Positions 1-26,027 of a stretch of DNA of 40,597 nucleotides are shown here, in pieces. The number at the start of each line of letters is the position of its first letter. Positions within the stretch are counted from its first letter, which is position 1. This DNA is from an uncultured Candidatus Bathyarchaeia archaeon. Its GTDB lineage: Archaea; Thermoproteota; Bathyarchaeia; TCS64. A program made the position numbers and the translations under genes. The notes beneath the pieces were generated by a model that did not search any database, had not been told where the DNA came from, and worked only from the letters and a program-made list of their open reading frames with translations. The DNA lies in the NCBI GenBank assembly GCA_964559155.1, contig CAZLHA010000002.1:1-40597 (forward strand). Direction: 5' to 3'.

Positions 1-83
1 CGCAGCCGATGGGATTCGAACCCATGAGGCTCAAAGGCCACTGGTTTTCGAGACCAGCACAATCACCACTCTGTCACGGCTGC
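1..83 (-). tRNA. tRNA-Ser (anticodon CGA), 3' end at window edge
   Basis: The reverse complement folds as a class II tRNA. Acceptor GCAGCCG/CGGCTGC; D-loop AGTGGTGA; anticodon stem CTGGT/ACCAG with loop CTCGAAA (anticodon CGA). It has a ~15-nt variable arm and T-arm ATGGG-TTCGAAT-CCCAT. The discriminator is nt 1, so any CCA would lie off-window. Confidence 0.85.
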
Positions 84-923: not shown

Positions 924-2123
924 GTGAAAACAACGAGCGGCTATACCACACGTCTATACGCCCTTATGCGCTCAGCAACCACCTTTGTACTAAACTTCAC
1001 ACTTACTCAGCCCATATACCGTCTATTCCTTACTGGCAAAGGGATAACCGTGGTCCAGCTAGGAGTTCTCCTCAGTGTCCAAAACTTCATTCCCTTAATA
1101 CTTAGAATCCCCATAAGTGGCTTAATAGAACGAATCGGCCGAATACGCAGCCTAATAATAAGCCTAATAATAAGCGGCCTAGGAACACTGCTCTTCATAC
1201 CAGCCCAAACCTACACCCACCTACTGCTTGTAATCATATTCAACAGTATATCATCCAGCAGCTTCAATCAGACCGCCATGAGCACAGTAAGTGATGCAGC
1301 CCCACAACACAGACAAGGCGACGCTATGGGAAGATATCTAACCTTTCTCGGTCTTGGAATGCTTCTGGGCCCAGCCCTATGCTCATGGCTAGTAGAACCC
1401 TTAGGATACACAAACCTATTCCTAGTAGCTGGAGCAGTACCCACTATAGGCATACTCCTCTTAGTCTTCATGGCTCCACAGGAAATCAGGGAACAGGAGA
1501 AAACTGACACACCTACCATACCCCTAAGAGAGTCCATGAATATGATACTCAAAAATCGAAACATACGCCTCCTAAGCTACTGCCGTGTAAGCTTTAGCAC
1601 CGCCCAAGCCATATTCCTAGCACTATTCAGCATATATGCCGCCAACAGACTAGGGTTAAGCGACTCCAAAATAGCCCTACTATTCACCATAAGAGGATTC
1701 TCAAACACCCTAGCACGGTTCCCAGCCGGAAACATCAGCGACAAGATAGGTAGACGCCCACTACTATACGCGGCATACAGTTTACTAGTTGTCAGCTTCA
1801 TAATCATATCAACCACAGGAAACATAACCATGTTAGCTATATCCATGGCGCTATATGGGCTCTGTTGGGGAACAAGAGCCGTATCAGAGTGGGCTTTCCT
1901 CACAGATCTCGTGGAACCTGAGATCAAGACCATAAGCATAAGCTACCTCTCCAGTATCTTCAGTCTAGGAAGCACATTGGGTAGCATAGCATCAGGAATA
2001 CTAACCGTATTCCTGCCCTATAGCAGTATATTTCTTCTAGGGTCTTTACTCAACCTAGGAGTACTACCCGCTTTATACTCTATGAGGAAGAATCCTGATA
2101 ACTCTTCATCTTCTCCAGAATAG
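924..2123 (+). CDS. MFS transporter
   Basis: 399-aa ORF (GTG start). About 12 hydrophobic segments, an MFS-like loop motif GLIERIGRIRS after TM2 and its repeat DKIGRRP in the second half. Confidence 0.75.
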   Translation: MKTTSGYTTRLYALMRSATTFVLNFTLTQPIYRLFLTGKGITVVQLGVLLSVQNFIPLILRIPISGLIERIGRIRSLIISLIISGLGTLLFIPAQTYTHLLLVIIFNSISSSSFNQTAMSTVSDAAPQHRQGDAMGRYLTFLGLGMLLGPALCSWLVEPLGYTNLFLVAGAVPTIGILLLVFMAPQEIREQEKTDTPTIPLRESMNMILKNRNIRLLSYCRVSFSTAQAIFLALFSIYAANRLGLSDSKIALLFTIRGFSNTLARFPAGNISDKIGRRPLLYAAYSLLVVSFIIISTTGNITMLAISMALYGLCWGTRAVSEWAFLTDLVEPEIKTISISYLSSIFSLGSTLGSIASGILTVFLPYSSIFLLGSLLNLGVLPALYSMRKNPDNSSSSPE

Positions 2124-2505
2124 AATTATACGCCTCAACAGGATCTACAATGCCCTGAACCATTCGTTCAAATGGACAATAGATAACGCCATTATCCATT
2201 TTGATATGTGGAACCTCTTGGTTATAAACAAGTTTCACGCCGTATTCCTCTAGCACCTGTTTACCAGGAGTACTCACAATAGCCCCGATTGCTTCTGCTG
2301 CCTTACTATAGATAACAAGAAACGCAGCAGCTCTCCCTAGGATCTTATCCACCATAAGGGTTCCCTCTAATTCCTCACCAAATTCATCAATCGCCACTAA
2401 ATGGGGTCTAATGCCTGCTAGTTTACTCTCAAAAATAAGCTCTCCTTCCTTATACACCATTAGACTATTTCCTGTGTCCTCAAGTGCTCTTAGATATTTC
2501 TTCAT
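2080..2505 (-). CDS. DUF1893 (TM1506-like) family protein
   Basis: 141-aa ORF. The pattern GIRPHL...DKILGRAAAFL...VSTPGKQVLEEYGV matches my recollection of the DUF1893 family. Its 3' end overlaps the convergent MFS gene by 44 nt. Confidence 0.5.
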   Translation of the reverse strand: MKKYLRALEDTGNSLMVYKEGELIFESKLAGIRPHLVAIDEFGEELEGTLMVDKILGRAAAFLVIYSKAAEAIGAIVSTPGKQVLEEYGVKLVYNQEVPHIKMDNGVIYCPFERMVQGIVDPVEAYNSILEKMKSYQDSSS

Positions 2506-2535
2506 CTGATCGCAAAATCATAACGGCGGTGATTT

Positions 2536-2790
2536 TTATCTATTGTTTTCTATCATGTCTTTGAATACTGTTTTTATTCTCTTATGCATCAAATAATACC
2601 AAGCTACAAGCACCCATAAAAGATAGCAATAAGCAACAATATACCCCTGTCTAGAAATAAAATAATTAAAGAACAATATCTCAGTGAAAACTGTAAGCGT
2701 AATCGCGATAACAAAGTTAAACGTAAACCAGTTGAACCCGATCTTCATATTATCTAATATAACCCGGTATTTTTCAATTATATTAACCAA
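2536..2790 (-). CDS. small membrane protein (2 predicted TM helices), hypothetical
   Basis: 84-aa ORF with two hydrophobic stretches (FNFVIAITLTVFTEILFF; VAYCYLLWVLVAWYYL). It lies 16 nt downstream of nikR on the same strand. Confidence 0.35.
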   Translation of the reverse strand: MVNIIEKYRVILDNMKIGFNWFTFNFVIAITLTVFTEILFFNYFISRQGYIVAYCYLLWVLVAWYYLMHKRIKTVFKDMIENNR

Positions 2791-2806
2791 AAAGAAATTA
2801 ACCGAG

Positions 2807-3208
2807 TTACTGCATCATTGATACCCTTATCTGCTTAAGCCCACGAGTAACCTCCAATGAGTTAGCCAACTTTTTTATCTGGGATGCTTTCCCTTTCACA
2901 GCCAAGATCTCAAGACAATTATGATGATCCAAGTGTATATGCGTCGAGGAACTGATAATATCCGTATAATCGTGTTGGAGATGGGTTAACTCTTCCATCA
3001 CGCCCCCAGTATGGTGATCGTAAATCATTGTTATTACACCGGCTAATACGCCTTCAAGATCCTTCCACTTATGTTCCGTCAAGAAACCCCTCATAGCCAG
3101 TTGTACTGCACTAGAACGATTATATCCAATCCTCTGCACAAGCTCATCAAATTCGGTCAGCAGATCGGGGTCTATTGATACGCTTATTCTTGAGACTCCA
3201 CTTGTCAT
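2807..3208 (-). CDS. nikR: nickel-responsive transcriptional regulator NikR
   Basis: 133 aa. N-terminal ribbon-helix-helix (RISVSIDPDLLTEFDELV...GYNRSSAVQLAMRGFL). C-terminal His/Cys metal site (YDHH...HLQHDY...STHIHLDHHNCLEILAVKG). Confidence 0.8.
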   Translation of the reverse strand: MTSGVSRISVSIDPDLLTEFDELVQRIGYNRSSAVQLAMRGFLTEHKWKDLEGVLAGVITMIYDHHTGGVMEELTHLQHDYTDIISSSTHIHLDHHNCLEILAVKGKASQIKKLANSLEVTRGLKQIRVSMMQ

Positions 3209-3219
3209 ACTTTCACAAC

Positions 3220-3947
3220 TCAGAGAATTGAGTCAACGAAGCTTGATATCGCTTCTGATGCAACACCAGCTTTTAACTCTCCACCCCTTAAACTAGACTG
3301 AAATATCTTAGAGTCATAACCAATAACAGCATCCGGTTTAAGTTCCTCAGACACGAGTTTCTCCATCATAACCTTCTCGACCTCTGGTGTCATCTTGTTT
3401 AATATGAGATGGATGGGTTTACCAATTCGGTCTGCTTCAGACGCCAGCTTCTTAGCTATGGCGACTCCCTCTGCAGTAGGATCAATGACTACAATTATTC
3501 TATCTATTCCTTCTTCAATGCCTCTACCCAGATGTTCAATACCCGCCTCAGCATCAACTATCAAATACTCATCTGATTCAAGCTCTATTCTTTTTAACAA
3601 TTCTTTGGAAAGAAATCCATAGGGACAAGCACAGCCTTCGCCATACTCCTCGATCTTACCCACTGCTACATACGTAATCCCGTCGCTGGTCTTTGAAATA
3701 TACTCCTCAGGGATCTTACTCATGTGTACCCTAACATGATCTTCTAACCCCTCTCGCACCTGTGATCTACCTCCTAAATAATTTGCAATAGTATCCACAG
3801 ATTCAACGCCCAGACTTTTTGGTAAGAGCCTATTGGATTCATCAGCATCCATCAAAATCGCTTTACCGTGTTTGGATAGTTCTCTAGTAATTAAAATGGA
3901 TACAGCGGACTTACCCGCCCCCCCTTACCGCCTACGAGTAGTTTCAT
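3220..3947 (-). pseudogene. cooC: CooC-type Ni-insertion P-loop ATPase (MinD/ParA class), interrupted by a 1-nt frameshift in a homopolymer
   Basis: ATG at 3947 reads MKLLVGGKGG, then the frame is lost in a C7 run (3918-3924; G7 on the coding strand). The downstream frame reads GGAGKSAVSILITRELSKHGKAILMDADES... to the stop at 3220. One extra G restores the deviant Walker A GGKGGAGKS and a 242-aa protein. A CxC metal motif (GEGCACP) is present. Confidence 0.7.
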
Positions 3948-4015
3948 AACCCCTCACCTCCGACATCGATTAAAAATATTACTAAAACGACTCTACGTAA
4001 TACTAATAATAATTA

Positions 4016-4058
4016 TCACCAGCTTCACCCCGTAATAACACCTATATTTCACCAGCTT
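4016..4058. promoter_or_regulatory. two copies of TCACCAGCTT (4016-4025, 4049-4058) in the cooC/hypA divergent promoter region
   Basis: Perfect 10-bp direct repeat with 33-nt periodicity. Each copy is preceded by AT(T)A/ATT. The second copy ends 12 nt before the hypA ATG. Confidence 0.25.
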
Positions 4059-4070
4059 GGAGAAAACCCC

Positions 4071-4475
4071 ATGCATGAATGGGCACTAGCAGAGGGAGTA
4101 CTATCAACAGCGAGGAAATTCGCCCTAGAAAACGATCTCACAAAGGTAACAGAAGTAGTAATCATGATAGGGGAATTACAACAAGTAGAACACGATGTAC
4201 TAGAGTTCGCCTTCGAACAACTAAAGACCCCTTTATTTGAGGACGCGGAATTCATATTAAAGTCACAGCCAGCAAAATTCAAGTGCCGCAACTGCGGTCA
4301 CGAGTGGACTTTTAAGGCTCAGGGTATGACAGAGGAAGTATCAGAGGCCATACATTTTGTACCTGAGATGGCGCATGTCTACTTAAAATGTGGTGAATGC
4401 GAAAGCCCCGACTTTGAGGTAATAGAAGGGAGAGGAGTCTGGTTAGCGACAATTAAGGGTGAGAAGAATGAGTGA
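4071..4475 (+). CDS. hypA: hydrogenase/urease nickel incorporation protein HypA
   Basis: 134 aa. The canonical N-terminus MHEWALAEGV is the Ni-binding MHE. The zinc site is CRNCGHEW...CGECESPDF (CxxC...CxxC). Confidence 0.85.
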   Translation: MHEWALAEGVLSTARKFALENDLTKVTEVVIMIGELQQVEHDVLEFAFEQLKTPLFEDAEFILKSQPAKFKCRNCGHEWTFKAQGMTEEVSEAIHFVPEMAHVYLKCGECESPDFEVIEGRGVWLATIKGEKNE

Positions 4476-5193
4476 TCCGAGACTAGACATCATCGAGAAA
4501 CGATTCGAAGACGTAGGTAAGGTTATTGCTGTAAGCAGCGGCAAAGGTGGGGTAGGAAAGAGCATGGTAGCAACGAGTCTAGCCTTGAATCTACGCGATA
4601 AGGGTTACAAAGTAGGGCTACTGGACCTGGACTTCACGAGTCCCGCTACACATGTAATACTTGGCGTAGAGGGCTTGTACCCCGAAGAGGAGTATGGAAT
4701 AATACCTCCATTAGCTCATGGTCTTCGTTATATGAGTATCACACATTATAGCTTGGATGAACCAGCACCTCTACGAGGAGAGGATGTTAGTAACGCCATA
4801 ATTGAGCTTCTGGCAATAATTAGGTGGGGTGAGCTTGATTATATTGTAGTGGATATGCCTCCTGGTATAGGTGACGCTACTCTGGATACTATTAGGTTGA
4901 TGCCCACATTGGAGTTTATCATAGTAACTACTCCAAGCGTGGTGGCATATCAATCGGTAAGAAGATTGATCCTATTATTACAGGATATGGGGATAACTAT
5001 TACAGGCGTCTTGGAGAATATGGTTATGAATGAATCAGACTATGTACAACCCGATGTAGAAGAAATGGGTCTAACTTATTTGGGTTCCATAGACTTTGAT
5101 GCCCATCTTGAGGCATCTATAGGAAACGTGGATAAGCTCTCTGAAACTGATTTCTATAAAGAAGTTAGTGAAATAGTGTCCAGTATTCTCTAA
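4468..5193 (+). CDS. Mrp/MinD-family P-loop ATPase, candidate ATPase-type HypB
   Basis: Deviant Walker A SSGKGGVGKS and Walker B YIVVDMPPG. ATG 4468 overlaps the hypA stop by 8 nt (an alternative GTG lies at 4459). The protein has no cysteine, so it lacks the CxxC of ApbC/Nbp35 Fe-S carriers. Confidence 0.65.
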   Translation: MSDPRLDIIEKRFEDVGKVIAVSSGKGGVGKSMVATSLALNLRDKGYKVGLLDLDFTSPATHVILGVEGLYPEEEYGIIPPLAHGLRYMSITHYSLDEPAPLRGEDVSNAIIELLAIIRWGELDYIVVDMPPGIGDATLDTIRLMPTLEFIIVTTPSVVAYQSVRRLILLLQDMGITITGVLENMVMNESDYVQPDVEEMGLTYLGSIDFDAHLEASIGNVDKLSETDFYKEVSEIVSSIL

Positions 5194-6353
5194 TCCTCTC
5201 TTATTAAGAGGGTAATTCCGAACGCTAGGCCGCTGAGGAGTGCGAAGAAGTAGAATACGCTGGAGTATCCATAGTACTGGGCTAAATATCCTGCTATTGC
5301 TGGCGTAAAGAACCCGATACCGTATTTTAGCGTGAAGTTTACTCCGTAGGTTACTCCTACCGTGTCTTTTCTGGCTACGTCTCCTAATAATGCGTTCATG
5401 GGGCTCTGGGTTACGAAGAACGTGAAGCCAAGGATTACTACGATTAGGATTAGTAGTGGTAGGCTACTAGGTGATAACACAAAGCCTATTAGGGTTAGGG
5501 CGAATCCTGCGTAACCGAAGAGGAGGAGTCTTTTTCTTCCTAGTTTGTCGCTTAGTTCTCCTCCGAGTATCTGGGCGAATGCTCCTACTGTGTATTTGAG
5601 GGTACTTAGTCCTCCAGCTATCACGAATGATACTCCTTTTTGTTCTTCCATGAAAGCCACGATGAAGCTGCTTACCCCTGTCCAGAGCATTCCGCTGAGC
5701 ACTACGATTCCTAGTGTAATGATTAGTGTTGATTTATCTGTGGTACCGAACATTCTACGTAGTGTTTCTATTGGTCCTGCGTGACCTCCTTCTGGGGTTG
5801 GATATGGTATATCTTCTGCTACAAAGTAGTCTATTGCTGCCATAGTGAGACCGATTGCCCCCCAGATGATGAATGTGGCTCTCCAGCCAAATCTGGATCC
5901 AAGTATACTTGAAGTTAGGTAACTGATGGCCATTCCCATGTCGCCTCCTAATCCCTGTATACCCATGTATCTGCCGCGACTCTCATCGCTGACTAGACTC
6001 ATATGCGCGTACCCGCATGGATGGTATAAGCTTGCTCCCATTCCCAGTGTAATGAGTCCGATAGCTGCTATTGGTATATTGGGGCTGATGCCTATGAGGA
6101 TGCTTGATCCTCCACAGAGTAGCATGCTCAACATTATGAGAGTTTTTTTACTATAGCGGTCTGCTATGAATCCTACTGGTAGGCTTAACCATCCATAGAA
6201 AAGTGATACTAGGCTTGCTAGCATTCCTACTGTGGCTATGTCTCCTAGTTCTCCGCCTAGGATGGGGATCATCGCGGGTAATAGTACTAGGTAGGCGTGC
6301 ATTATGCCGTGGCTTGCTGAGATGGTTACAATGGTTCTGTCTTCGGTGTTCAT
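5190..6353 (-). CDS. MFS transporter
   Basis: The start is placed at MNTEDRT (ATG 6353). About 12 TM segments and the loop motif ADRYSKKT. The 93 upstream codons of the track ORF are non-hydrophobic low-complexity and overlap the preceding gene. Confidence 0.7.
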   Translation of the reverse strand: MNTEDRTIVTISASHGIMHAYLVLLPAMIPILGGELGDIATVGMLASLVSLFYGWLSLPVGFIADRYSKKTLIMLSMLLCGGSSILIGISPNIPIAAIGLITLGMGASLYHPCGYAHMSLVSDESRGRYMGIQGLGGDMGMAISYLTSSILGSRFGWRATFIIWGAIGLTMAAIDYFVAEDIPYPTPEGGHAGPIETLRRMFGTTDKSTLIITLGIVVLSGMLWTGVSSFIVAFMEEQKGVSFVIAGGLSTLKYTVGAFAQILGGELSDKLGRKRLLLFGYAGFALTLIGFVLSPSSLPLLILIVVILGFTFFVTQSPMNALLGDVARKDTVGVTYGVNFTLKYGIGFFTPAIAGYLAQYYGYSSVFYFFALLSGLAFGITLLIRED

Positions 6354-16357: not shown

Positions 16358-16432
16358 GCCTTGGTAGCTCAGAGGTAGAGCGGCAGCCTTGTAAGCTGTT
16401 GGCCGCGGGTTCGAATCCCGCCCGAGGCTCCA
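16358..16432 (+). tRNA. tRNA-Thr (anticodon UGU) with encoded CCA
   Basis: Acceptor GCCTTGG/CCGAGGC (one G-U pair); D-arm TAGCTCAGAGGTAGAGC; anticodon stem GCAGC/GCTGT with loop CTTGTAA. T-arm GCGGG-TTCGAAT-CCCGC, discriminator T, CCA at 16430-16432. Confidence 0.85.
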
Positions 16433-16444
16433 TTCTTAAAAAAA

Positions 16445-16792
16445 TTATTTCTTGGATTTTTTGCTTTTCTTTTTCTTCTTTTCTTCTTTATCCTTGTGTT
16501 TCATACGTTTATGTTGCTCCATACCGAACTGGGAGTTAAATGTCCTGCCGCATATGGGGCATGGAACTGCGACCATCTCAAGCTCAATGTTTTTACCCAT
16601 CAAGTCTTTCTGGAGCTGTTTCATCAGCTTCTCTCCCTCAGTGTATGAGACTCTCTTATCCGTCTTTACCTTGATCCCTACGGTTAGGTTGAATTTTCTG
16701 TACTCTTTCTCGTCTCTCTCCATTCCCACAGCGTTTACTACGCCATGTATCTTGTCTTCTTGCGCCATTTTGTCACCTAAAGGGATATTCAT
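16445..16792 (-). CDS. C2H2 zinc-finger protein with poly-lysine C-terminal tail
   Basis: 115 aa (start may be MAQEDK at 16768). The single finger CPICGRTFNSQFGMEQHKRMKH (16496-16561) fits C-X2-C-X3-F-X5-hydrophobic-X2-H-X4-H exactly. The tail is KDKEEKKKKKSKKSKK. Confidence 0.6.
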   Translation of the reverse strand: MNIPLGDKMAQEDKIHGVVNAVGMERDEKEYRKFNLTVGIKVKTDKRVSYTEGEKLMKQLQKDLMGKNIELEMVAVPCPICGRTFNSQFGMEQHKRMKHKDKEEKKKKKSKKSKK

Positions 16793-17328: not shown

Positions 17329-17874
17329 ATGGTTTATACTGTATTACTACAACCCCTAAATATGAGACCTGAGGACTTTTTCAAGTTTAATCCTGAAACC
17401 GGGGAATGGAACAACATAAACGTGGATTACCGTTTCGTGCTAATAGGTGAAACAATTATCCACAGTATAGTGGAAAACCTAACTGAACACTTCGGCAGCG
17501 CAACAGGTGTATTCATGTACCAGAGTGGCTTGGGTGTGGGGATTAGTTACGGAAACCTTCTGAAAGAATCCCCAGACAAGTTAGTGGGTTTGAAGAATAT
17601 CTTTGAGAACATGTACATGGCTGGATGGGGGCGGATGACTATCGAGGACTCAGACATAGATTCCCTAGAACTGGATGAAATAACTATACTCGAGGAAAAT
17701 GGGTTCTTCACAAAAATGGGGTTGGAGGAAGAGATGGAGAACCTGAATCCATTCACAAAAGGATTTCTAACAGGTATCTTTGATACTGTTAACGGAGAGG
17801 AACACACCTGTGAGATGGAGGTCGTTAGCGAAAAGCCATTGAAATGTCGTTACACTATCACGACTATTCGTTAG
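17329..17874 (+). CDS. V4R-domain-like (4-vinyl reductase / hydrocarbon-binding) protein
   Basis: 181 aa. MYQSGLGVGISYG...MAGWGRMTIED...ENGFF...KGFLTGIFDTV...C resembles the V4R pattern. Weak, by eye only. Confidence 0.4.
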   Translation: MVYTVLLQPLNMRPEDFFKFNPETGEWNNINVDYRFVLIGETIIHSIVENLTEHFGSATGVFMYQSGLGVGISYGNLLKESPDKLVGLKNIFENMYMAGWGRMTIEDSDIDSLELDEITILEENGFFTKMGLEEEMENLNPFTKGFLTGIFDTVNGEEHTCEMEVVSEKPLKCRYTITTIR

Positions 17875-18469
17875 AGTTTTTTTCCTGCTCTCTTTTACCG
17901 TAGCTAACCACGAGGTCCACTAGTTTCTTGGAGTCTATCTCGGCTCTGCTACGCCAGTCAAGGTACAGCATTCCCTGATCATCCTCACCAAGATAACCCT
18001 GATTGATGTAACGATCAATATTGAGTTTCACCCTCCACCCGGGAAGCTTCTCCTCCAAGACCCTCTCCACGTCCTGTCTGGTGGATTTTCCCTGCTTGGA
18101 GATAATATAGGCAACGGATACAGCTAACCCGGCGATATCATCTATACGCCACCCAATGGTCTTGGCTGTCTTCTGGTCCACGGTGCCCCTCATGGTGATA
18201 TAATATCTGGCGTCCTGAAGCTGAGAACTGGTGGGGTCAAGGATATCCGGGTCATCAAGTACTCTGGTAACCTGAAGGTCAAATGGTTGTAGTTGTTTAT
18301 CCAGTACCTCAAGGATGTTCTGCCAGTCGGATCCTAGTTCTTTACGTAGCTCCCAGCCTCTAACCCCGGGTAATTTATGATGCGTGAAGAATAGTAGATG
18401 TACTGCGTCCTTGAGTTTACGTTGATAATGCTGCTCTGCCTTGCTTACTCGTTTCGCCAAAGTTTCCAC
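17864..18469 (-). CDS. tandem winged-helix KITE-type protein (ScpB / Nse3-MAGE-like), third gene of the SMC-like operon
   Basis: 201 aa with two WH-like modules, at about residues 22-72 and 110-188. Module 1 reads AVHLLFFTHHKLPGVRGWELRKELGSDWQNILEVLDKQLQPFDLQVTRVLDDP. Module 2 reads GLAVSVAYIISKQGKSTRQDVERVL...YINQGYLGEDDQGMLYLDWRSRAEIDSKKLVDLV. The start overlaps the upstream gene by 25 nt. Confidence 0.55.
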   Translation of the reverse strand: METLAKRVSKAEQHYQRKLKDAVHLLFFTHHKLPGVRGWELRKELGSDWQNILEVLDKQLQPFDLQVTRVLDDPDILDPTSSQLQDARYYITMRGTVDQKTAKTIGWRIDDIAGLAVSVAYIISKQGKSTRQDVERVLEEKLPGWRVKLNIDRYINQGYLGEDDQGMLYLDWRSRAEIDSKKLVDLVVSYGKREQEKNSNE

Positions 18470-19218
18470 TCCTCATAATCTACTAGCACTGGTAGGCTTA
18501 CTTTTCCCTGCTCAGGATCGGGTATGGGCTCCTCTTTATGGATAATAGTGTATTCATCCATTAACTTGTCCCATTCGACGCCCGCGTACCCGTAACCCAC
18601 CATGAATACGGTTAGATAAGCCCGGTTAACAGTATCCTCGTAGGTATCTGCACCGATCCAGTCCCAGTAATCGATACTCCCCCCGGGTCCCACTTTTTCC
18701 TCAAGCTCCTGCCAGAGTTTCTCTATCACCTCAGTGAATCCTTCCTCCGGCAGTAACCCCATACGCCGCACCTCGTCACGGGTGGTTCTACCTGTCTCTC
18801 TCTCCTCTACCTCCTCGTCCTGCCATCTCTCATCGATGGGAACAAGGTCCCCCCAGTACCCGAGGCTAGCCCCCAGGGTGCCTGCGCTCATCTGCTCTAA
18901 CTCCACCAACGGGTGCCATGTTCTGAGAAATAGATCCGCGATAGCCCCTATGTCCAACGCTAATAGGCTCTGACTCAGCATGAATGGATCCTTGTACAGT
19001 GTCGTAGACTTATGCTCTATCCACTGATTCTGGCGCTCAAGCACGTTACTGAGCTCCCTCAACGCCTCAGCGTCCAAACAGAAATCCTTAGGGTTCTTAA
19101 TGTTAGGGTAATGTTTCTTGATGACGCTCATCACGTAGTCGAAGTCGATGTCAAATGGCTCTATCTTGCCGCTCTGAACCATCTTGCATAGGTTTATGAC
19201 GCTCTCAAGCTCGCTCAT
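18445..19218 (-). CDS. ScpA-like kleisin, second gene of the SMC-like operon
   Basis: 257 aa. The N-terminus LCKMVQSGKIEPFDIDFDYVMSVIKKHY...LDAEALRELSNVLERQ parallels the ScpA N-terminal helical domain. A charged central linker (DERWQDEEVEERETGRTTRDEVRR) is followed by a C-terminal WH-like segment (YEDTVNRAYLTVFMVGYGYAGVEWD). The ATG lies 1 nt after the SMC-like stop (TAAgATG). Confidence 0.6.
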   Translation of the reverse strand: MSELESVINLCKMVQSGKIEPFDIDFDYVMSVIKKHYPNIKNPKDFCLDAEALRELSNVLERQNQWIEHKSTTLYKDPFMLSQSLLALDIGAIADLFLRTWHPLVELEQMSAGTLGASLGYWGDLVPIDERWQDEEVEERETGRTTRDEVRRMGLLPEEGFTEVIEKLWQELEEKVGPGGSIDYWDWIGADTYEDTVNRAYLTVFMVGYGYAGVEWDKLMDEYTIIHKEEPIPDPEQGKVSLPVLVDYEEWKLWRNE

Positions 19219-19219
19219 C

Positions 19220-21274
19220 TTATTCCTCCACTACTGTGGGCTCTGAGACCGTCTCTGTTTTATGAACCATGATGATGTGCACATCTTTCTCCTTGAAGGT
19301 AATCTGGCTAGGGGTAATAGCCATGTACTGGTCATCGGTGCCTTCCGTGGTCTGCACGATGAAGTCGCTTACAGCCTCCTTGTTCTGGGGATCCATGTGG
19401 AGGTCGAACTCGTCCACAGCCCTGAAGGGACTCAATACGTTCTGCTGTAGTGAGAGCAGGAACGCCATAACGCTGCTGCTCCGTTCTCCACCACTATGCG
19501 TGTATGGGTCGAGTCGGCTGGGTGGAGCGCCTTTGAACCCTACGAATATCTCTAATCCTGCTTCTTCGATGTCGTGGCTGTCGATTAACCTGACTTCTCC
19601 GTTTGCTTGAAGTCTCTTGAGTAACTTCTTGTATCGTATATTCACGTCGTCGAGGAGTTTCTCTGTTACTTGTCTCCATTTCTTGTTTCGTTCCTCGATC
19701 TCCTTGAGTATTTTACGGCGGTTCTCTTTTACTTCCTGGATCCGCTGCTGTATCTCTTTGAATGTCTCGTTGTAGCTCTCGTACATCTCCTCAGCTTCAT
19801 CAGGTATATTGGACATCCCCATGAGGATTCCCTGAGTCTTTCTTATCTCGTTAAGAATCTCTTCCCCGGTTCTCCCTGTCTCGATCCGCTGCCCTTTGAT
19901 TAACGCCTCTGCCTCAGCGTCTTTCAGGTCACGGTTAGCCCTATCCATCTCCGCTTTCAGCGACTCTACTCTGCGGTTCAGGCGTTGGCGCCGGTCCTTG
20001 AGTAACGCTAGGTTTATTCTGCTGTCGATGTATTGATCATTTGCTTTATCGATTCTTCCACGCAGCTGATTTATCTCAGTTACTAGTTTCTGGGCTTCTT
20101 CCTCTGCTGTGGTTAACCGCCGGGTATACGTCTCTAACTGGGTCTGGATTGTGTTCCTCTGGGCGTTAAACTGATTGCTCAGGCTCTCATATGTCTCTAC
20201 CTGTGTCTCCTCTAGCTCCTCGAAGAGCTTGAAGTAGTCATCCAGCTTGGTGGGGCCCATCTCTAGCTGGTTTAAAAGGTTCTTGTAGCTGGTTTCGAAG
20301 CGTCTTCTCTGTTGATTGCTCTCCAGTATATTGTCTTCCAGCTGATTGAGCCTGTCTTTAGCTGTGTTGATGCTGTGTTCGCTTACCCCAACGATTCTCT
20401 CTGATTCGATACGTTTCTCGATAAGGTCTTCCCGCTGGGTTCTTAGATTCTGGAGCATTTGCTCGCTGTCCACTATTAGCTTGGTGTTCTGCTCCATCTC
20501 CTCCTCGGCTTCAAACAGCTCCTTTTCTGTATCCTTTAACTGTTCTTGGAGTTTCTCCACCTGCTCCTCCATGGACATAACCCTGCTCCACGCCATCTCC
20601 TGCTGGAGAAAAGTCTGTCTCTTTTCTAACTGCTTTTTCTCCTGAAGGCGCTCATTCTGTTCACGCCAATAATTTAGTGTCTCCCTTGCCTGATTCAGCA
20701 AATTACCAAGGCTCTCCTCCTCGCTCAGCACCCCACTGAGTTTTTTCTTCGCCTCTATCACGTCCTCTCGGAAGGTATCGAAGCCGACTGCTTCCTCCAA
20801 TATCTGGAGTCTCTCCTTGGGGTTTATGTTAGCGAACTTGCTGGGCATAGCTTGATGCATGATTATCAGCATATTAGTGGGGTCGAAGCCATAGGTTCTC
20901 AGAAGCCCCATTACCTCCGCTTTGGTCACGTTTCTCTGGTTAACCCTAAAACCATATTTTCCATCTACCCTCAGGGTTCTTGTGAGTGTAATCTCATCCA
21001 TATTATACTGGGGGACTGGTCTGTAACCGTTCTCTCCAACCGTGTTATCCAGTATCAGTGTGACTCTGGCTGTCTCGCTCCCCCATCTGATGAGGTCGCT
21101 GAGTTTCTTTGATCGTTCTGTATAAGTGTCTCCGAGGGCGACGCATATCCCCAGTAGTAGACTGCTTTTCCCGGATCCGTTGGGGCCGCAGACTACGTTT
21201 ACCCCTTCTTTCAGGGGTACTCTGGCGTACTCGTATGACATAAAGTTCTCTAGTATTACCTCACGGATGAGCAT
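19220..21274 (-). CDS. short hingeless SMC-like ABC ATPase with SMC5/6-type head motifs
   Basis: 684 aa. Walker A GPNGSGKS (30-37), Q-loop MHQ (139-141), signature SGGERS (594-599), Walker B AVDEFD (619-624) followed by LHMDPQN. Residues ~170-545 are heptad-rich coiled coil, broken at MGPTK (339-343). There is no globular hinge and no CxxC hook. Confidence 0.85.
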   Translation of the reverse strand: MLIREVILENFMSYEYARVPLKEGVNVVCGPNGSGKSSLLLGICVALGDTYTERSKKLSDLIRWGSETARVTLILDNTVGENGYRPVPQYNMDEITLTRTLRVDGKYGFRVNQRNVTKAEVMGLLRTYGFDPTNMLIIMHQAMPSKFANINPKERLQILEEAVGFDTFREDVIEAKKKLSGVLSEEESLGNLLNQARETLNYWREQNERLQEKKQLEKRQTFLQQEMAWSRVMSMEEQVEKLQEQLKDTEKELFEAEEEMEQNTKLIVDSEQMLQNLRTQREDLIEKRIESERIVGVSEHSINTAKDRLNQLEDNILESNQQRRRFETSYKNLLNQLEMGPTKLDDYFKLFEELEETQVETYESLSNQFNAQRNTIQTQLETYTRRLTTAEEEAQKLVTEINQLRGRIDKANDQYIDSRINLALLKDRRQRLNRRVESLKAEMDRANRDLKDAEAEALIKGQRIETGRTGEEILNEIRKTQGILMGMSNIPDEAEEMYESYNETFKEIQQRIQEVKENRRKILKEIEERNKKWRQVTEKLLDDVNIRYKKLLKRLQANGEVRLIDSHDIEEAGLEIFVGFKGAPPSRLDPYTHSGGERSSSVMAFLLSLQQNVLSPFRAVDEFDLHMDPQNKEAVSDFIVQTTEGTDDQYMAITPSQITFKEKDVHIIMVHKTETVSEPTVVEE

Positions 21275-21312: not shown

Positions 21313-21320
21313 TTTTTAAA
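21313..21320 (-). promoter_or_regulatory. TATA-like box (TTTAAAAA on minus strand) for the SMC-like operon
   Basis: It lies ~40 nt upstream of ATG 21274. A GAGG Shine-Dalgarno-like element sits 8-11 nt before the ATG. Confidence 0.3.
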
Positions 21321-21476: not shown

Positions 21477-22493
21477 ATGATAGAATTAAATGAAGCTCAA
21501 GAAGAACGAGCAATGAGACTTCACAAGGAAGCCATAATCGTTGACACCCACTGTGACACACTGGGGCACTTCCTCAAGCATCCATGGCCACAACCAAAAG
21601 CACGTACACTGGGAGAAAGAAGCGAGAGAGGACACCTAGATCTTCCGCGTATGATTGAGGGTGGGCTTACCTGTCAGACCTTTGCCATATACACTGGTAG
21701 AGCACCAATCGTACCTGACGCCACGTTAAGGGCTCTCCAGATGGTGGACAAGTTCTATACCCAGATCAATGCCAACTCCGAGATAGTTCCAGTAACCACC
21801 CACGGTGAGATAGTGCAAGCCAAAAAGAGGGGGAAAGTATGTGGATTACTCAGCATCGAGGGAGCGGAACCCCTAATGGGGGACATCGCATTGTTAAGAG
21901 TCTTCTACAGGCTCGGCGTAAGGATGTTAAGCTTCGCGTGGAACTATAGAACCCCGTTCGCGGATGGGTTAGGAGCCAAACGAGCTGAGAGCAAGCTACC
22001 TGAGCTAGGCGTAGAGGCTCTTGAGGAGATGAACAAGCTGGGTATGATCTTCGATGTAAGCCACCTCGCTGACACCGTCTTCTGGGATGTAGCTGATCTT
22101 ATGGATACCCCCTTCATCGCCAGTCACAGTAATGCTAGGGCTATCTGTGATCATCCTCGTAACTGCACAGATGATATGATTGAGGCGATAGCTGATCATG
22201 GAGGGGTTCTTGGTATGAACTATGCTCCAGCTTTCATTAAGAAAGGCGGAGAAGATGTCACCATTAATGATATGGTTGACCATATTGACCACATAGTGGA
22301 ACTGGTTGGACCCGACCACGTGGGTCTGGGCTCGGACTTTGATGGCATAGGAGCACCACCGGAGGGTCTGGAGAGTGTTGATAAGACGCCTAACGTTACC
22401 CGGGTTCTTGTTCAGCGTGGTTACAGCGACGAGGATATCATGAAGATTCTCGGCGGTAACCATATGCGTGTCTTCAAAGAGGTTATAGGTTAA
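21477..22493 (+). CDS. membrane dipeptidase family M19
   Basis: 338 aa. Motifs IVDTHCDTL, FDVSHL, ASHSNARAICDHPRNCTDD and HVGLGSDFDGI are characteristic of renal-type dipeptidases. Confidence 0.8.
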   Translation: MIELNEAQEERAMRLHKEAIIVDTHCDTLGHFLKHPWPQPKARTLGERSERGHLDLPRMIEGGLTCQTFAIYTGRAPIVPDATLRALQMVDKFYTQINANSEIVPVTTHGEIVQAKKRGKVCGLLSIEGAEPLMGDIALLRVFYRLGVRMLSFAWNYRTPFADGLGAKRAESKLPELGVEALEEMNKLGMIFDVSHLADTVFWDVADLMDTPFIASHSNARAICDHPRNCTDDMIEAIADHGGVLGMNYAPAFIKKGGEDVTINDMVDHIDHIVELVGPDHVGLGSDFDGIGAPPEGLESVDKTPNVTRVLVQRGYSDEDIMKILGGNHMRVFKEVIG

Positions 22494-22783
22494 TCTCTTA
22501 TGGTGGCTATGCAACCACTGCATCCATGTTTTATCTTGAATCTGCAATCTGTGCACTCTGGTCCACATGGCGGGGTGTCAGATGTTTTTATCTCTCTGGG
22601 TTCCTCAGGGTAGTAGACTTTGTCTATTAGTATGGTTTCTGATTCACTATCTGGGAATAGTTCCGAGTAGTTTATCCCCCACTCTAGTTCATCGGGGGCC
22701 ATGAACACGGAGATTATCTTTCTCCCCCTCAGACCATAGGCAAGTAGGTGGGGACACTCCTTGAATCGTCTAGCTTCCTCCAC
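22490..22783 (-). CDS. small protein with C-terminal Cys cluster, hypothetical
   Basis: 97-aa ORF ending CGPECTDCRFKIKHGCSGC. No confident family. Confidence 0.3.
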   Translation of the reverse strand: MEEARRFKECPHLLAYGLRGRKIISVFMAPDELEWGINYSELFPDSESETILIDKVYYPEEPREIKTSDTPPCGPECTDCRFKIKHGCSGCIATIRD

Positions 22784-25949: not shown

Positions 25950-26027
25950 GGGCCGGTGGTCTAGTCTGGCTAGGACACCGCGTTCACATCGCGGTAATCG
26001 CCTGTTCAAATCCGGCCCGGCCCACCA
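25950..26027 (+). tRNA. tRNA-Val (anticodon CAC) with encoded CCA
   Basis: Acceptor GGGCCGG/CCGGCCC; D-arm GGTCTAGTCTGGCTAGGAC; anticodon stem CCGCG/CGCGG with loop TTCACAT. T-arm GCCTG-TTCAAAT-CCGGC (one U-C mismatch), discriminator A, CCA at 26025-26027. Confidence 0.8.

Follow-up and report, generated by a model that had tools for sequence, protein, structure and literature searches.

A Bathyarchaeia operon very probably encoding an SMC5/6-related complex, with a short-armed ATPase that appears to lack a hinge

Archaeal operons encoding an SMC5/6-related ATPase together with a kleisin and a KITE protein are already known, having been reported from sequence analysis in 2021–2025. Yoshinaga & Inagaki 2021 defined the SMC5/6-related archaeal SMCs and placed Bathyarchaeota homologs with SMC5/6, and van Hooff et al. 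(bioRxiv 10.1101/2024.01.07.573240) described, from TACK and Asgard archaea, operons in which an SMC5/6-related SMC is combined with an Nse4-related kleisin and an Nse1/3-related kite. The latter study lists Bathyarchaeia genomes in which Nse4-related genes lie next to Nse1/3-related ones, and gives Ca. Bathyarchaeota E29_bin60, which has the same gene order as the locus described here, as an operon example. Given these two studies, the proposal of our first-pass annotation that the locus might represent an undescribed complex, with no dedicated kleisin/KITE set known, is out of date. The locus shares with the described archaeal complex its three components, gene order, strand arrangement, taxon and SMC5/6 head affinity; we found no essential difference and regard it as a member.

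The window, i.e. the whole stretch of DNA that was analyzed (40,597 nucleotides), carries the following genes and candidate promoter element, the latter a TATA box read from the sequence.

19220..21274, minus strand: gene for an SMC5/6-related archaeal SMC ATPase (gene 1), 684 aa, ATG start
18445..19218, minus strand: gene for an Nse4-like kleisin (gene 2), 257 aa, ATG start
17864..18469, minus strand: gene for an Nse1/Nse3(MAGE)-like KITE (gene 3), 201 aa, GTG start
21313..21320, minus strand: candidate archaeal TATA box TTTAAAAA, 39–46 nt upstream of the SMC start codon

The three genes are co-directional and translationally coupled, as judged from ORF coordinates and junction sequence; the coordinates in the first-pass annotation and its TAAgATG junction between genes 1 and 2 (19222-19216, minus strand) were both confirmed. 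The 25-nt overlap that it assigned to genes 2 and 3 holds for the GTG start at 18469, but shrinks to 16 nt with the TTG at 18460 as start codon. Most homologs of gene 3 begin with MA(K/Q/R)R..., matching the TTG, so that a 198-aa product is the more likely one. A GAGG sequence is located 8 nt upstream of the ATG of gene 1. The operon is surrounded by metabolic genes (a divergent M19 dipeptidase, a class IV aminotransferase, a cupin and an FMN reductase), and neither a nuclease nor another effector gene was found among the immediate neighbours, in agreement with the earlier reading; Nse2 and Nse5/6 genes were likewise absent near the operon.

Hundreds of full-length homologs were found for each of the three proteins. 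Of the informative metagenome loci, 43/43 and 59/59 keep the order SMC, kleisin, KITE, and so do a complete Bathyarchaeota genome and, among distant archaea, UBA160 and Thermofilales contigs. The same three genes also occur under consecutive GenBank accessions (TFH17538-40). Because of the number of homologs and the strict gene order, the association of the three genes is far beyond chance. The survey across archaea that had been suggested at first pass shows a conserved triad, and a genome with a kleisin of 59% identity still has the divergent M19 dipeptidase as neighbour.

The gene 1 protein matches Pfam SMC_N over residues 3–676 (4.5e-32). When the family profile was compared with the PDB, all Smc5/Smc6 structures came first (202–245 bits), followed by the archaeal Smc head (188), SMC2 (182), SMC1/3/4 (139–154) and Rad50 (48 bits), and the low score of Rad50 speaks against a grouping with Rad50, which the first-pass annotation had named as fatal to its reading. 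In a search of 1.84 billion representatives, the best matches after its own archaeal family include eukaryotic SMC5 and SMC6. The single sequence scored SMC5/6 and canonical SMC about equally (about 125–132 bits; 106 versus 108 bits against the PDB). The motifs QSGGERS, PFRxVDE, MDxxN and QYxxITP are held in common with SMC5/6, as are loop lengths, and the peptide SGGERSSSVMAFLLSLQQNVLSPFRAVDEFDLHMDPQN (residues 594–631), which had been read as SMC5/6-type rather than canonical, bears out that reading together with the profile scores. The head motifs are as follows.

21164..21187, minus strand: Walker A / P-loop GPNGSGKS, residues 30–37, read from the sequence; columns invariant in the family alignment
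19478..19495, minus strand: ABC signature SGGERS, residues 594–599, SMC5-type by sequence reading and motif comparison
19391..19426, minus strand: Walker B / D-loop FRAVDEFDLHMD, residues 617–628, SMC5/6-type by motif comparison

D621, E622, H626 and D628 are also invariant in the family alignment. These data support assignment of the gene 1 product as an SMC ATPase with an SMC5/6-type rather than a canonical head; its sister group was not settled by a crude unrooted neighbour-joining tree of heads.

The two head halves, at the N- and C-termini, are joined by an antiparallel coiled coil of ~170 residues per arm, corresponding to about 25 nm, which is half as long as usual. Pfam SMC_hinge gave no match in this protein, no CxxC of a zinc hook could be read in it, and the only Gly/Pro residues between positions 191 and 460 are G296, G340-P341 and G406. 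In addition, the profile alignments to Smc6 span its residues 81–506 and 666–1056, passing over the Smc6 hinge. From this pattern we infer that the arms end in a plain hairpin, with neither hinge nor zinc hook, whose tip would lie as follows.

20252..20257, minus strand: predicted coiled-coil hairpin tip Gly340-Pro341, at the usual hinge position

In related proteins, by contrast, the arm tip bears either a zinc hook or a true hinge. All 43 measurable independent metagenome copies are 682–687 aa long (548–685 aa in the wider family), indicating that the compactness pointed out at first pass is real and not the result of a truncated assembly.

The AlphaFold2 model of the gene 2 protein (moderate confidence, pLDDT 62) comprises an N-terminal helical domain (~1–99), a low-confidence linker (66–147) and a C-terminal winged helix (161–227), which lies as follows.

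18538..18738, minus strand: kleisin C-terminal winged-helix domain, pLDDT 85–95, supported by Foldseek superposition

The leading Foldseek matches are Nse4 (7tve_G, E 5.3e-5; 7qcd_F; 8t8f_G), followed by the C-terminal winged helices of ScpA, Scc1 and Brn1; superposed on ScpA-C / Scc1-C, the winged helix gave target-normalised TM-scores of about 0.6–0.7 (ScpA-C 0.66–0.72). Against the PDB, the family profile matched yeast Nse4 best, in its C-terminal part (E=0.01), and Pfam Nse4_C matches weakly in 11/37 family members. Sequence profile, Pfam and modelled fold therefore support a kleisin that is Nse4-like rather than ScpA-like: the kleisin fold and C-terminal winged helix expected from the first-pass label "ScpA-like", which had cited the peptide GKIEPFDIDFDYVMSVIKKHY present in this protein, were found, but the best match in sequence and fold is Nse4, not ScpA. 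The winged helix presumably binds the "cap" of the SMC head.

For the gene 3 protein, the AlphaFold2 model (moderate confidence, pLDDT 71) shows two tandem winged-helix modules, as had been proposed, and Foldseek placed MAGE-G1 (5hvq_D, E 3.6e-4), MAGE-A4 and Nse1 and Nse3 from 7dg2 at the top, with MukE lower. Pfam SMC_Nse1 matches weakly in 4/33 family members. A tandem winged-helix KITE of Nse1/Nse3(MAGE) type is thus supported by the model. The sequence matches of the kleisin to Nse4 and of the KITE to Nse1 fall below family thresholds (E about 0.01), and global TM-scores of both models are low (0.25–0.37) because relative domain orientations differ.

For each of the three proteins, the closest match in sequence and in fold comes from the eukaryotic Smc5/6-Nse1-Nse3-Nse4 core (7tve, 7qcd, 7dg2), which has in common with the operon QSGGERS, PFRxVDE, MDxxN and Q-Y/F-xx-I-T-P, a kleisin with N-terminal helical domain and C-terminal winged helix, and a tandem winged-helix KITE. 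In contrast to the eukaryotic SMC heterodimer and the Nse1 and Nse3 pair, the operon has one SMC gene, whose product would probably form a homodimer, and one KITE gene, without RING finger, whose product would probably dimerise as well; the arms are about half the eukaryotic length and lack a hinge domain, and the kleisin is smaller (257 aa versus about 400 aa for Nse4).

We consider it very probable that this chromosomal operon encodes an archaeal SMC5/6-related complex of SMC5/6-type ATPase, Nse4-like kleisin and Nse1/3-like KITE. The operon is unlikely to be a defence module of the Wadjet, Lamassu or MADS type directed at plasmids or viruses, in which an SMC-like ATPase and accessory proteins sense and restrict foreign DNA. 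Since restriction of viral and extrachromosomal DNA is known for eukaryotic Smc5/6, a defence function could be reconciled with the family assignment; in PADLOC, gene 1 also gives sub-family matches to mad3 (95.8 bits, confined to the N-terminal half), LmuB (59.7) and JetC (44 bits). However, these matches lie on the generic ABC head, genes 2 and 3 match no PADLOC model, and no effector gene adjoins. The metabolic neighbours and retention of the M19 dipeptidase point to a conserved core locus rather than a variable island. MukBEF, MksBEF and Wadjet JetABC(D) likewise combine an SMC-like ATPase, kleisin and KITE, but have long hinge-bearing arms, a JetD nuclease in the case of Wadjet, and the order kleisin, KITE, SMC, the jetABC order being the reverse of that found here; the first-pass annotation was correct on this difference.

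It is very unlikely that gene 1 encodes an ASRP (coalescin/Sph) or Rad50-like zinc-hook protein beside two unrelated small genes by chance. Its length is near that of ASRPs (about 590 aa), which, like Rad50, are short SMC-superfamily ATPases without globular hinge, and the alignment to the NCBIfam ASRP model runs from end to end. With 92.7 bits, however, it stays well under the cut-off (300), Rad50 models reach ≤70 bits, and the profile favours Smc5/6 over Rad50 by about 200 bits. ASRPs (ClsN/coalescin, Sph1/2) and Rad50 dimerise via a CxxC zinc hook, which almost all ASRPs have (Yoshinaga 2022) and gene 1 lacks, and have no kleisin/KITE partners, whereas here proteins of both folds are always adjacent; the ASRP/Sph-type assignment was rejected on score and missing hook. 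Least credible is an ordinary Smc-ScpAB of the organism with a truncated or mis-assembled smc gene. Smc-ScpAB also encodes SMC, kleisin and tandem winged-helix KITE together, the order smc, kleisin, kite is typical for its canonical archaeal operons too (van Hooff supplement, 10.1101/2024.01.07.573240), and SMC_prok_A is the top NCBIfam match of gene 1 (204 bits). This score is far under the cut-off of 729, no curated NCBIfam cut-off being passed by the protein, and canonical SMC is about 1170 aa long, against a hingeless 684 aa with SMC5/6-type motifs. The partners are closest to Nse4 and Nse1/3, with no Pfam SMC_ScpA or SMC_ScpB match in either, and one published Bathyarchaeota genome holds both operon types (van Hooff et al., 10.1101/2024.01.07.573240). 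Lengths, including the uniform metagenome copies and short wider family, motifs and partner matches effectively refute a truncated smc, the concern raised at first pass.

For the archaeal SMC5/6-related complex, a mechanism can be proposed by analogy with Smc5/6-Nse1/3/4 and Smc-ScpAB, from which its stoichiometry, subunit contacts, DNA clamping and cellular role are drawn. ATP binding would engage two ATPase heads, which the kleisin would bridge, its N-terminal helices holding one SMC at the coiled-coil neck and its C-terminal winged helix holding the other head at the cap. A KITE dimer on the kleisin linker would then, with the engaged heads, clamp double-stranded DNA, and ATP hydrolysis would cycle the clamp for chromosome organisation or DNA repair.

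The sole little-noticed point of the operon is its ATPase with short arms and without hinge: coiled-coil columns were removed from the analyses of Yoshinaga & Inagaki 2021 and van Hooff et al. (10.1101/2024.01.07.573240), and word searches of both texts found no discussion of arm length or hinge. As read from the sequence, hinge absence sets this complex apart from every characterised SMC-kleisin-KITE complex, so that the ring and clamp model may not hold for it. With a plain hairpin at the arm end, dimerisation at the arm tip, if any, would need another interface, and with such short hingeless arms the complex may work chiefly as a DNA clamp close to the heads.

The three minus-strand genes that the first-pass annotation had read as a tightly coupled SMC-kleisin-KITE operon were all present in the sequence as ORFs, exactly where it had placed them:

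19220-21274, minus strand, gene 1, SMC ATPase of 684 aa
18445-19218, minus strand, gene 2, predicted kleisin of 257 aa
17864-18469, minus strand, gene 3, predicted KITE protein, 201 aa when read from GTG

The stop codon of gene 1 and the start codon of gene 2 form TAAgATG at 19222-19216, as had been described. The reported overlap of genes 2 and 3 was also real, but its length of 25 nt holds for the GTG start of gene 3, whereas a TTG at 18460 gives 16 nt. Since the majority of gene 3 homologs begin with MA(K/Q/R)R, matching this TTG, the gene 3 product is probably 198 aa long and the overlap 16 nt rather than 25 nt. Located 39-46 nt 5' of the gene 1 ATG, a TTTAAAAA box is a candidate TATA box of archaeal type. 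The window belongs to Bathyarchaeota (Bathyarchaeia, Thermoproteota), and proteins nearly identical to those encoded here carry the annotation 'Candidatus Bathyarchaeota archaeon'. It contains no further SMC, kleisin or KITE gene; the neighbours of the operon are metabolic and include no nuclease or other effector gene, in agreement with the earlier remark that no nuclease is attached. A gene for an M19 membrane dipeptidase (21477-22493, plus strand, E 6e-104) and the SMC gene diverge from an intergenic region of 202 nt; as the dipeptidase is kept as a divergent neighbour in the complete Bathyarchaeota genome CP070784.1 (locus L081), the two genes probably share a promoter region and a conserved synteny. 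On the other side, a 181-aa ORF (17329-17874, plus strand) without Pfam match is convergent with the KITE gene, the 3' ends overlapping by 11 nt, and is probably unrelated to the operon because it is not conserved beside the three genes in L081.

Further features of the window were as follows:

1-83, minus strand, tRNA-Ser (CGA), at the contig edge
13695-14576, minus strand, uncharacterised DUF7121 protein of 293 aa
15241-16242, minus strand, uncharacterised protein of 333 aa, hydrophobic at the N terminus, without Pfam match
16358-16432, plus strand, tRNA-Thr (TGT)
25950-26027, plus strand, tRNA-Val (CAC)

A protein of 115 aa (16445-16792, minus strand), encoded beside the tRNA-Thr gene, has one zinc finger of C2H2 type at residues 77-99 and ends in a tail that is very rich in lysine, KDKEEKKKKKSKKSKK; a eukaryote-like finger of this sort is unusual in an archaeon. 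A 97-aa ORF (22490-22783, minus strand), rich in Cys at its C terminus, CGPECTDCRFKIKHGCSGC, and without a Pfam match, is convergent with the dipeptidase gene, their 3' ends overlapping by 4 nt.

Pfam SMC_N covered residues 3-676 of gene 1 (E 4.5e-32), the two halves of the ATPase head lying at the N and C termini, and the motifs GPNGSGKS, MHQ, SGGERS and VDEFD were present and invariant in the family. A search of 1.84 billion representatives with gene 1 returned a family mostly of 548-685 aa at 34-57% identity, one cluster member of which is labelled 'structural maintenance of chromosomes protein 5' by JGI. Beyond this family, the best matches included eukaryotic SMC5 (Dictyostelium and a mite, names as given by the sources) and SMC6-type proteins, at scores close to those of canonical SMCs. 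While the margin between SMC5/6 and canonical SMCs was small for the single sequence, a profile of the gene 1 family was far more discriminating: against the PDB, its ten best distinct sequences were all Smc5 or Smc6 (202-245 bits), followed by an archaeal Smc head (188 bits), SMC2 (182 bits), SMC3, SMC1 and SMC4 (139-154 bits) and Rad50 (48 bits). In PADLOC, the best match of gene 1 was 'mad3' (95.8 bits, residues 3-258 only, i.e. the N-terminal half), with LmuB and JetC weaker; we read these matches as generic similarity of SMC heads.

When the archaeal family was aligned with SMC5 (Dictyostelium, mite), SMC6-type and canonical SMC sequences, it had QSGGERS, PFRx(V/I)DE and MDxxN(R/E) in common with SMC5/6, as well as Q(Y/F)xxITP where canonical SMCs read QFIV(I/V)(S/T)(H/L), and the loops preceding the Q-loop and Q(Y/F)xxITP were of equal length in the two groups. 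A neighbour-joining tree of the head domain gave three clusters (the archaeal family, SMC5 plus SMC6, and canonical SMCs); being unrooted, it could not be polarised without an outgroup and does not decide the sister group, so it was not used as evidence. Published rooted analyses, including that of Yoshinaga & Inagaki (2021, PMC8665677), group Bathyarchaeota homologs with SMC5/6.

Neither gene 2 nor gene 3 had any match in Pfam, NCBIfam or PADLOC at default thresholds. A gene 2 profile built from 37 homologs, compared with 177,635 PDB sequences, found yeast Nse4 as the best match (E 0.01), with query residues 142-222 aligned to Nse4 residues 264-345, which correspond to the C-terminal winged-helix region of Nse4, along with a faint match to the N terminus of ScpA (E 0.55). 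Pfam Nse4_C was the commonest sub-threshold family (11 of the 37 members, below the gathering threshold), and no member matched the SMC_ScpA family even at E up to 10. The AlphaFold2 model of gene 2 (pLDDT 62) consisted of helices at residues 3-15, 26-36 and 43-74, a low-confidence linker at 66-147 and a C-terminal winged helix at 161-227 with pLDDT of 85-95. Foldseek against the PDB placed Nse4 chains of Smc5/6 cryo-EM structures in the top three positions (E 5.3e-5, 1.9e-4 and 2.1e-3); next came ScpA, Scc1 and Brn1, matched through their C-terminal winged helices with target-normalised TM-scores of 0.6-0.7. From the profile, Pfam, AlphaFold2 and Foldseek results, gene 2 is predicted to encode a kleisin whose nearest relative is Nse4.

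For gene 3, the profile gave no meaningful sequence match in the PDB, and a fold comparison was therefore needed. Its AlphaFold2 model (pLDDT 71) had two tandem winged-helix modules, for which the best Foldseek match was MAGE-G1 of the MAGE-G1/NSE1 complex (E 3.6e-4), then MAGE-A4 and the Nse1 and Nse3 KITE chains of the Nse1-Nse3-Nse4 complex, with MukE lower. The alignments to MAGE-G1, MAGE-A4, Nse1 and Nse3 spanned ~185-200 columns each; the global TM-scores were low (0.33-0.37), which is expected because the two domains are oriented differently, but still limits the strength of the match. Pfam SMC_Nse1 appeared weakly in 4 of 33 members, and SMC_ScpB in none of the 33 even at E up to 10. 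The protein of 198-201 aa has no Cys/His-rich C-terminal domain and so lacks the RING finger specific to Nse1, as expected from its reported absence in archaeal kites (van Hooff et al., 10.1101/2024.01.07.573240). The modelled fold thus points to an Nse1/3-type KITE protein without the Nse1 RING finger.

The order of SMC, kleisin and KITE on one strand was the same in L081, in 'Thaumarchaeota UBA160' and Thermofilales contigs (L001 and L002), in which the best-matching SMC segments were 32% and 49% identical to that of the window, and in the consecutive GenBank entries TFH17538-40. In metagenome loci, the SMC gene ended at the kleisin start in all 43 with room upstream, and the KITE gene followed the kleisin gene in all 59 with room downstream, as it did in L001, L002 and L081. 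In L081 (5948-7999) two ORFs (201 and 457 aa) are called in place of a single orthologous SMC gene, directly 5' of intact kleisin and KITE genes; a frameshift, pseudogene formation or an error in sequencing may explain the split. A contig profile search with the SMC alignment was dominated by Walker-A pattern matches to bacterial canonical SMC, and its family loci were L001 and L002 only; three further loci (L011, L020 and L076) were rejected, their SMCs being ~1180-1195 aa long without A1/A2-type partner genes.

The other readings of the operon can be weighed against these data. That it is a truncated canonical Smc-ScpAB appears practically negligible: gene 1, like seven further family members, passed no curated NCBIfam cut-off (204 bits for SMC_prok_A and 189 bits for SMC_prok_B, with cut-offs of 729 and 567), no hinge was matched, and the partner proteins matched neither ScpA nor ScpB families. 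Nor is the shortness of gene 1 an assembly artefact, because the SMC was 682-687 aa in each of the 43 metagenome loci whose upstream sequence was long enough. An ASRP or Rad50-type protein is highly improbable as well, given 92.7 bits against the NCBIfam ASRP model (cut-off 300), at most 70 bits against Rad50 models, and no CxxC at the tip as would be found in an ASRP (ClsN/Sph). A defence module of the Wadjet, Lamassu or MADS type is what the PADLOC matches might suggest, but these are partial, generic to ATPase heads and limited to gene 1, with none for genes 2 and 3, and the neighbourhood holds no effector gene and has a conserved core context, leaving this reading very unlikely. All three were rejected.

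The structural part of the first-pass annotation was thus borne out by an SMC5/6-type head, an Nse4-like fold and an Nse1/3-like fold, whereas its suggestion that the complex was possibly undescribed was not, since the system has already been reported from sequence analysis. Yoshinaga & Inagaki (GBE 2021; PMC8665677) divided archaeal SMCs into 'canonical' and 'SMC5/6-related', the latter coming from TACK archaea in 66 of 80 cases, with Bathyarchaeota metagenomes named explicitly; a canonical SMC also occurred in 44 of the 80 species or metagenomes having an SMC5/6-related one. Van Hooff, Raas, Tromer & Eme (bioRxiv 10.1101/2024.01.07.573240, v2 May 2025) grouped Nse4 with a clade of TACK and Asgard kleisins, defined an 'Nse1/3-like' kite type restricted to archaea, and found the paralogs in distinct operons, each of SMC, kleisin and kite. 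In their Table S3, Nse4-related and Nse1/3-related genes lie next to each other in many Bathyarchaeia genomes, and Ca. Bathyarchaeota archaeon E29_bin60 is the example given of a genome with both operons, each running from SMC through kleisin to kite. The operon is therefore real and well conserved and belongs to a family that has already been reported; as a typical member it adds no new kind of system. Our literature search turned up no experimental study of a family member.

What the two papers leave unremarked is the compact, hinge-less form of the SMC. Only ~340 residues separate the two head halves of gene 1, and Gly and Pro within residues 191-460 are limited to G296, G340-P341 and G406. 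Pfam SMC_hinge had no match in gene 1, and a zinc hook was likewise absent, as there is no CxxC and the only cysteines (residues 29 and 44) are both in the N-terminal head. The gene 1 profile aligned with yeast Smc6 at 81-506 and 666-1056, that is, with all of it except the hinge. The SMC5/6-type hinge dimerisation domain between arms of ~50 nm is thus absent at the sequence level. We infer that gene 1 forms an antiparallel coiled-coil hairpin of ~170 residues per arm with its turn at G340-P341, the arms of which would be ~25 nm long at 0.15 nm per residue; for Bacillus Smc, 49 nm is given in PMC5526789. The arms are the least conserved region of gene 1, and across the wider family the tip is not conserved and arm length is variable. 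In both Yoshinaga & Inagaki (PMC8665677) and van Hooff et al. (10.1101/2024.01.07.573240), coiled-coil columns were stripped before tree building, and mention of arm length or hinge is confined to the introductions. The only 'hinge-less SMC' paper found in our literature search (PMC12153180) was rejected, its subject being a marine actinobacterial clade and not this family.

Longer relatives carry other arm tips. Bathyarchaeota proteins P0371, P0384 and P0395 (~1016-1047 aa), together with the truncated entries P0426 and P0427, have the SMC5/6-type head motifs of the window SMC at 34-37% identity to it. All five have a conserved C(D/E)(K/R)CGS placed precisely halfway along the coiled coil and resembling a zinc hook of the Rad50 or ASRP kind, and the three full-length proteins had no match to SMC_hinge. 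At locus L082, where P0371 is encoded (2105-5248), the next gene is a gamma-glutamyltranspeptidase and no kleisin or KITE gene lies beside it. An archaeal protein of 982 aa, P0420, has the SMC5/6-related C-terminal motif and a central region matching the hinge of P0448, which carries Pfam SMC_hinge (E 3.3e-10); P0420 therefore has a true hinge. Hairpin, zinc-hook and hinge relatives mean that the clade shows three arm-tip types. We tentatively propose, while regarding it as somewhat doubtful, that the arm tip varies within one clade among a hairpin (548-687 aa), a Rad50-like CxxC hook (~1030 aa, apparently with no kleisin or KITE gene beside it) and a true hinge (~980 aa), and that the hairpin form is the dominant Bathyarchaeia/TACK version, a natural 'mini-SMC' that makes a complete SMC-kleisin-KITE machine with half-length arms and a bare hairpin.

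By analogy with other SMC complexes, the heads of an SMC homodimer would engage on ATP, the kleisin would bridge them by binding one SMC at its neck and the other at its cap, and a KITE dimer seated on the linker of the kleisin would complete a DNA clamp as in DNA-bound Smc5/6 (7tve). Closure at the arm tips is doubtful because gene 1 has neither hinge nor hook; the tips may associate via a helical interface not yet characterised; alternatively, the arms may stay open and the complex may clamp DNA close to the heads.

Eukaryotic Smc5/6 has been proposed to descend from archaeal operons of the SMC5/6-related kind, which makes these relevant to eukaryogenesis and to understanding Smc5/6, the least-understood SMC complex. 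At 684 aa for the SMC, 257 aa for the kleisin and ~198 aa for the KITE protein, the compact set could be attractive for reconstitution and cryo-EM, and the missing hinge raises the testable question of how, or whether, the complex entraps DNA. If the hairpin form truly lacks arm-tip dimerisation, a kleisin/KITE-type SMC complex can function without a closed SMC ring, which would bear on the parts needed for DNA clamping versus loop extrusion and on the form of the archaeal ancestor of Smc5/6.
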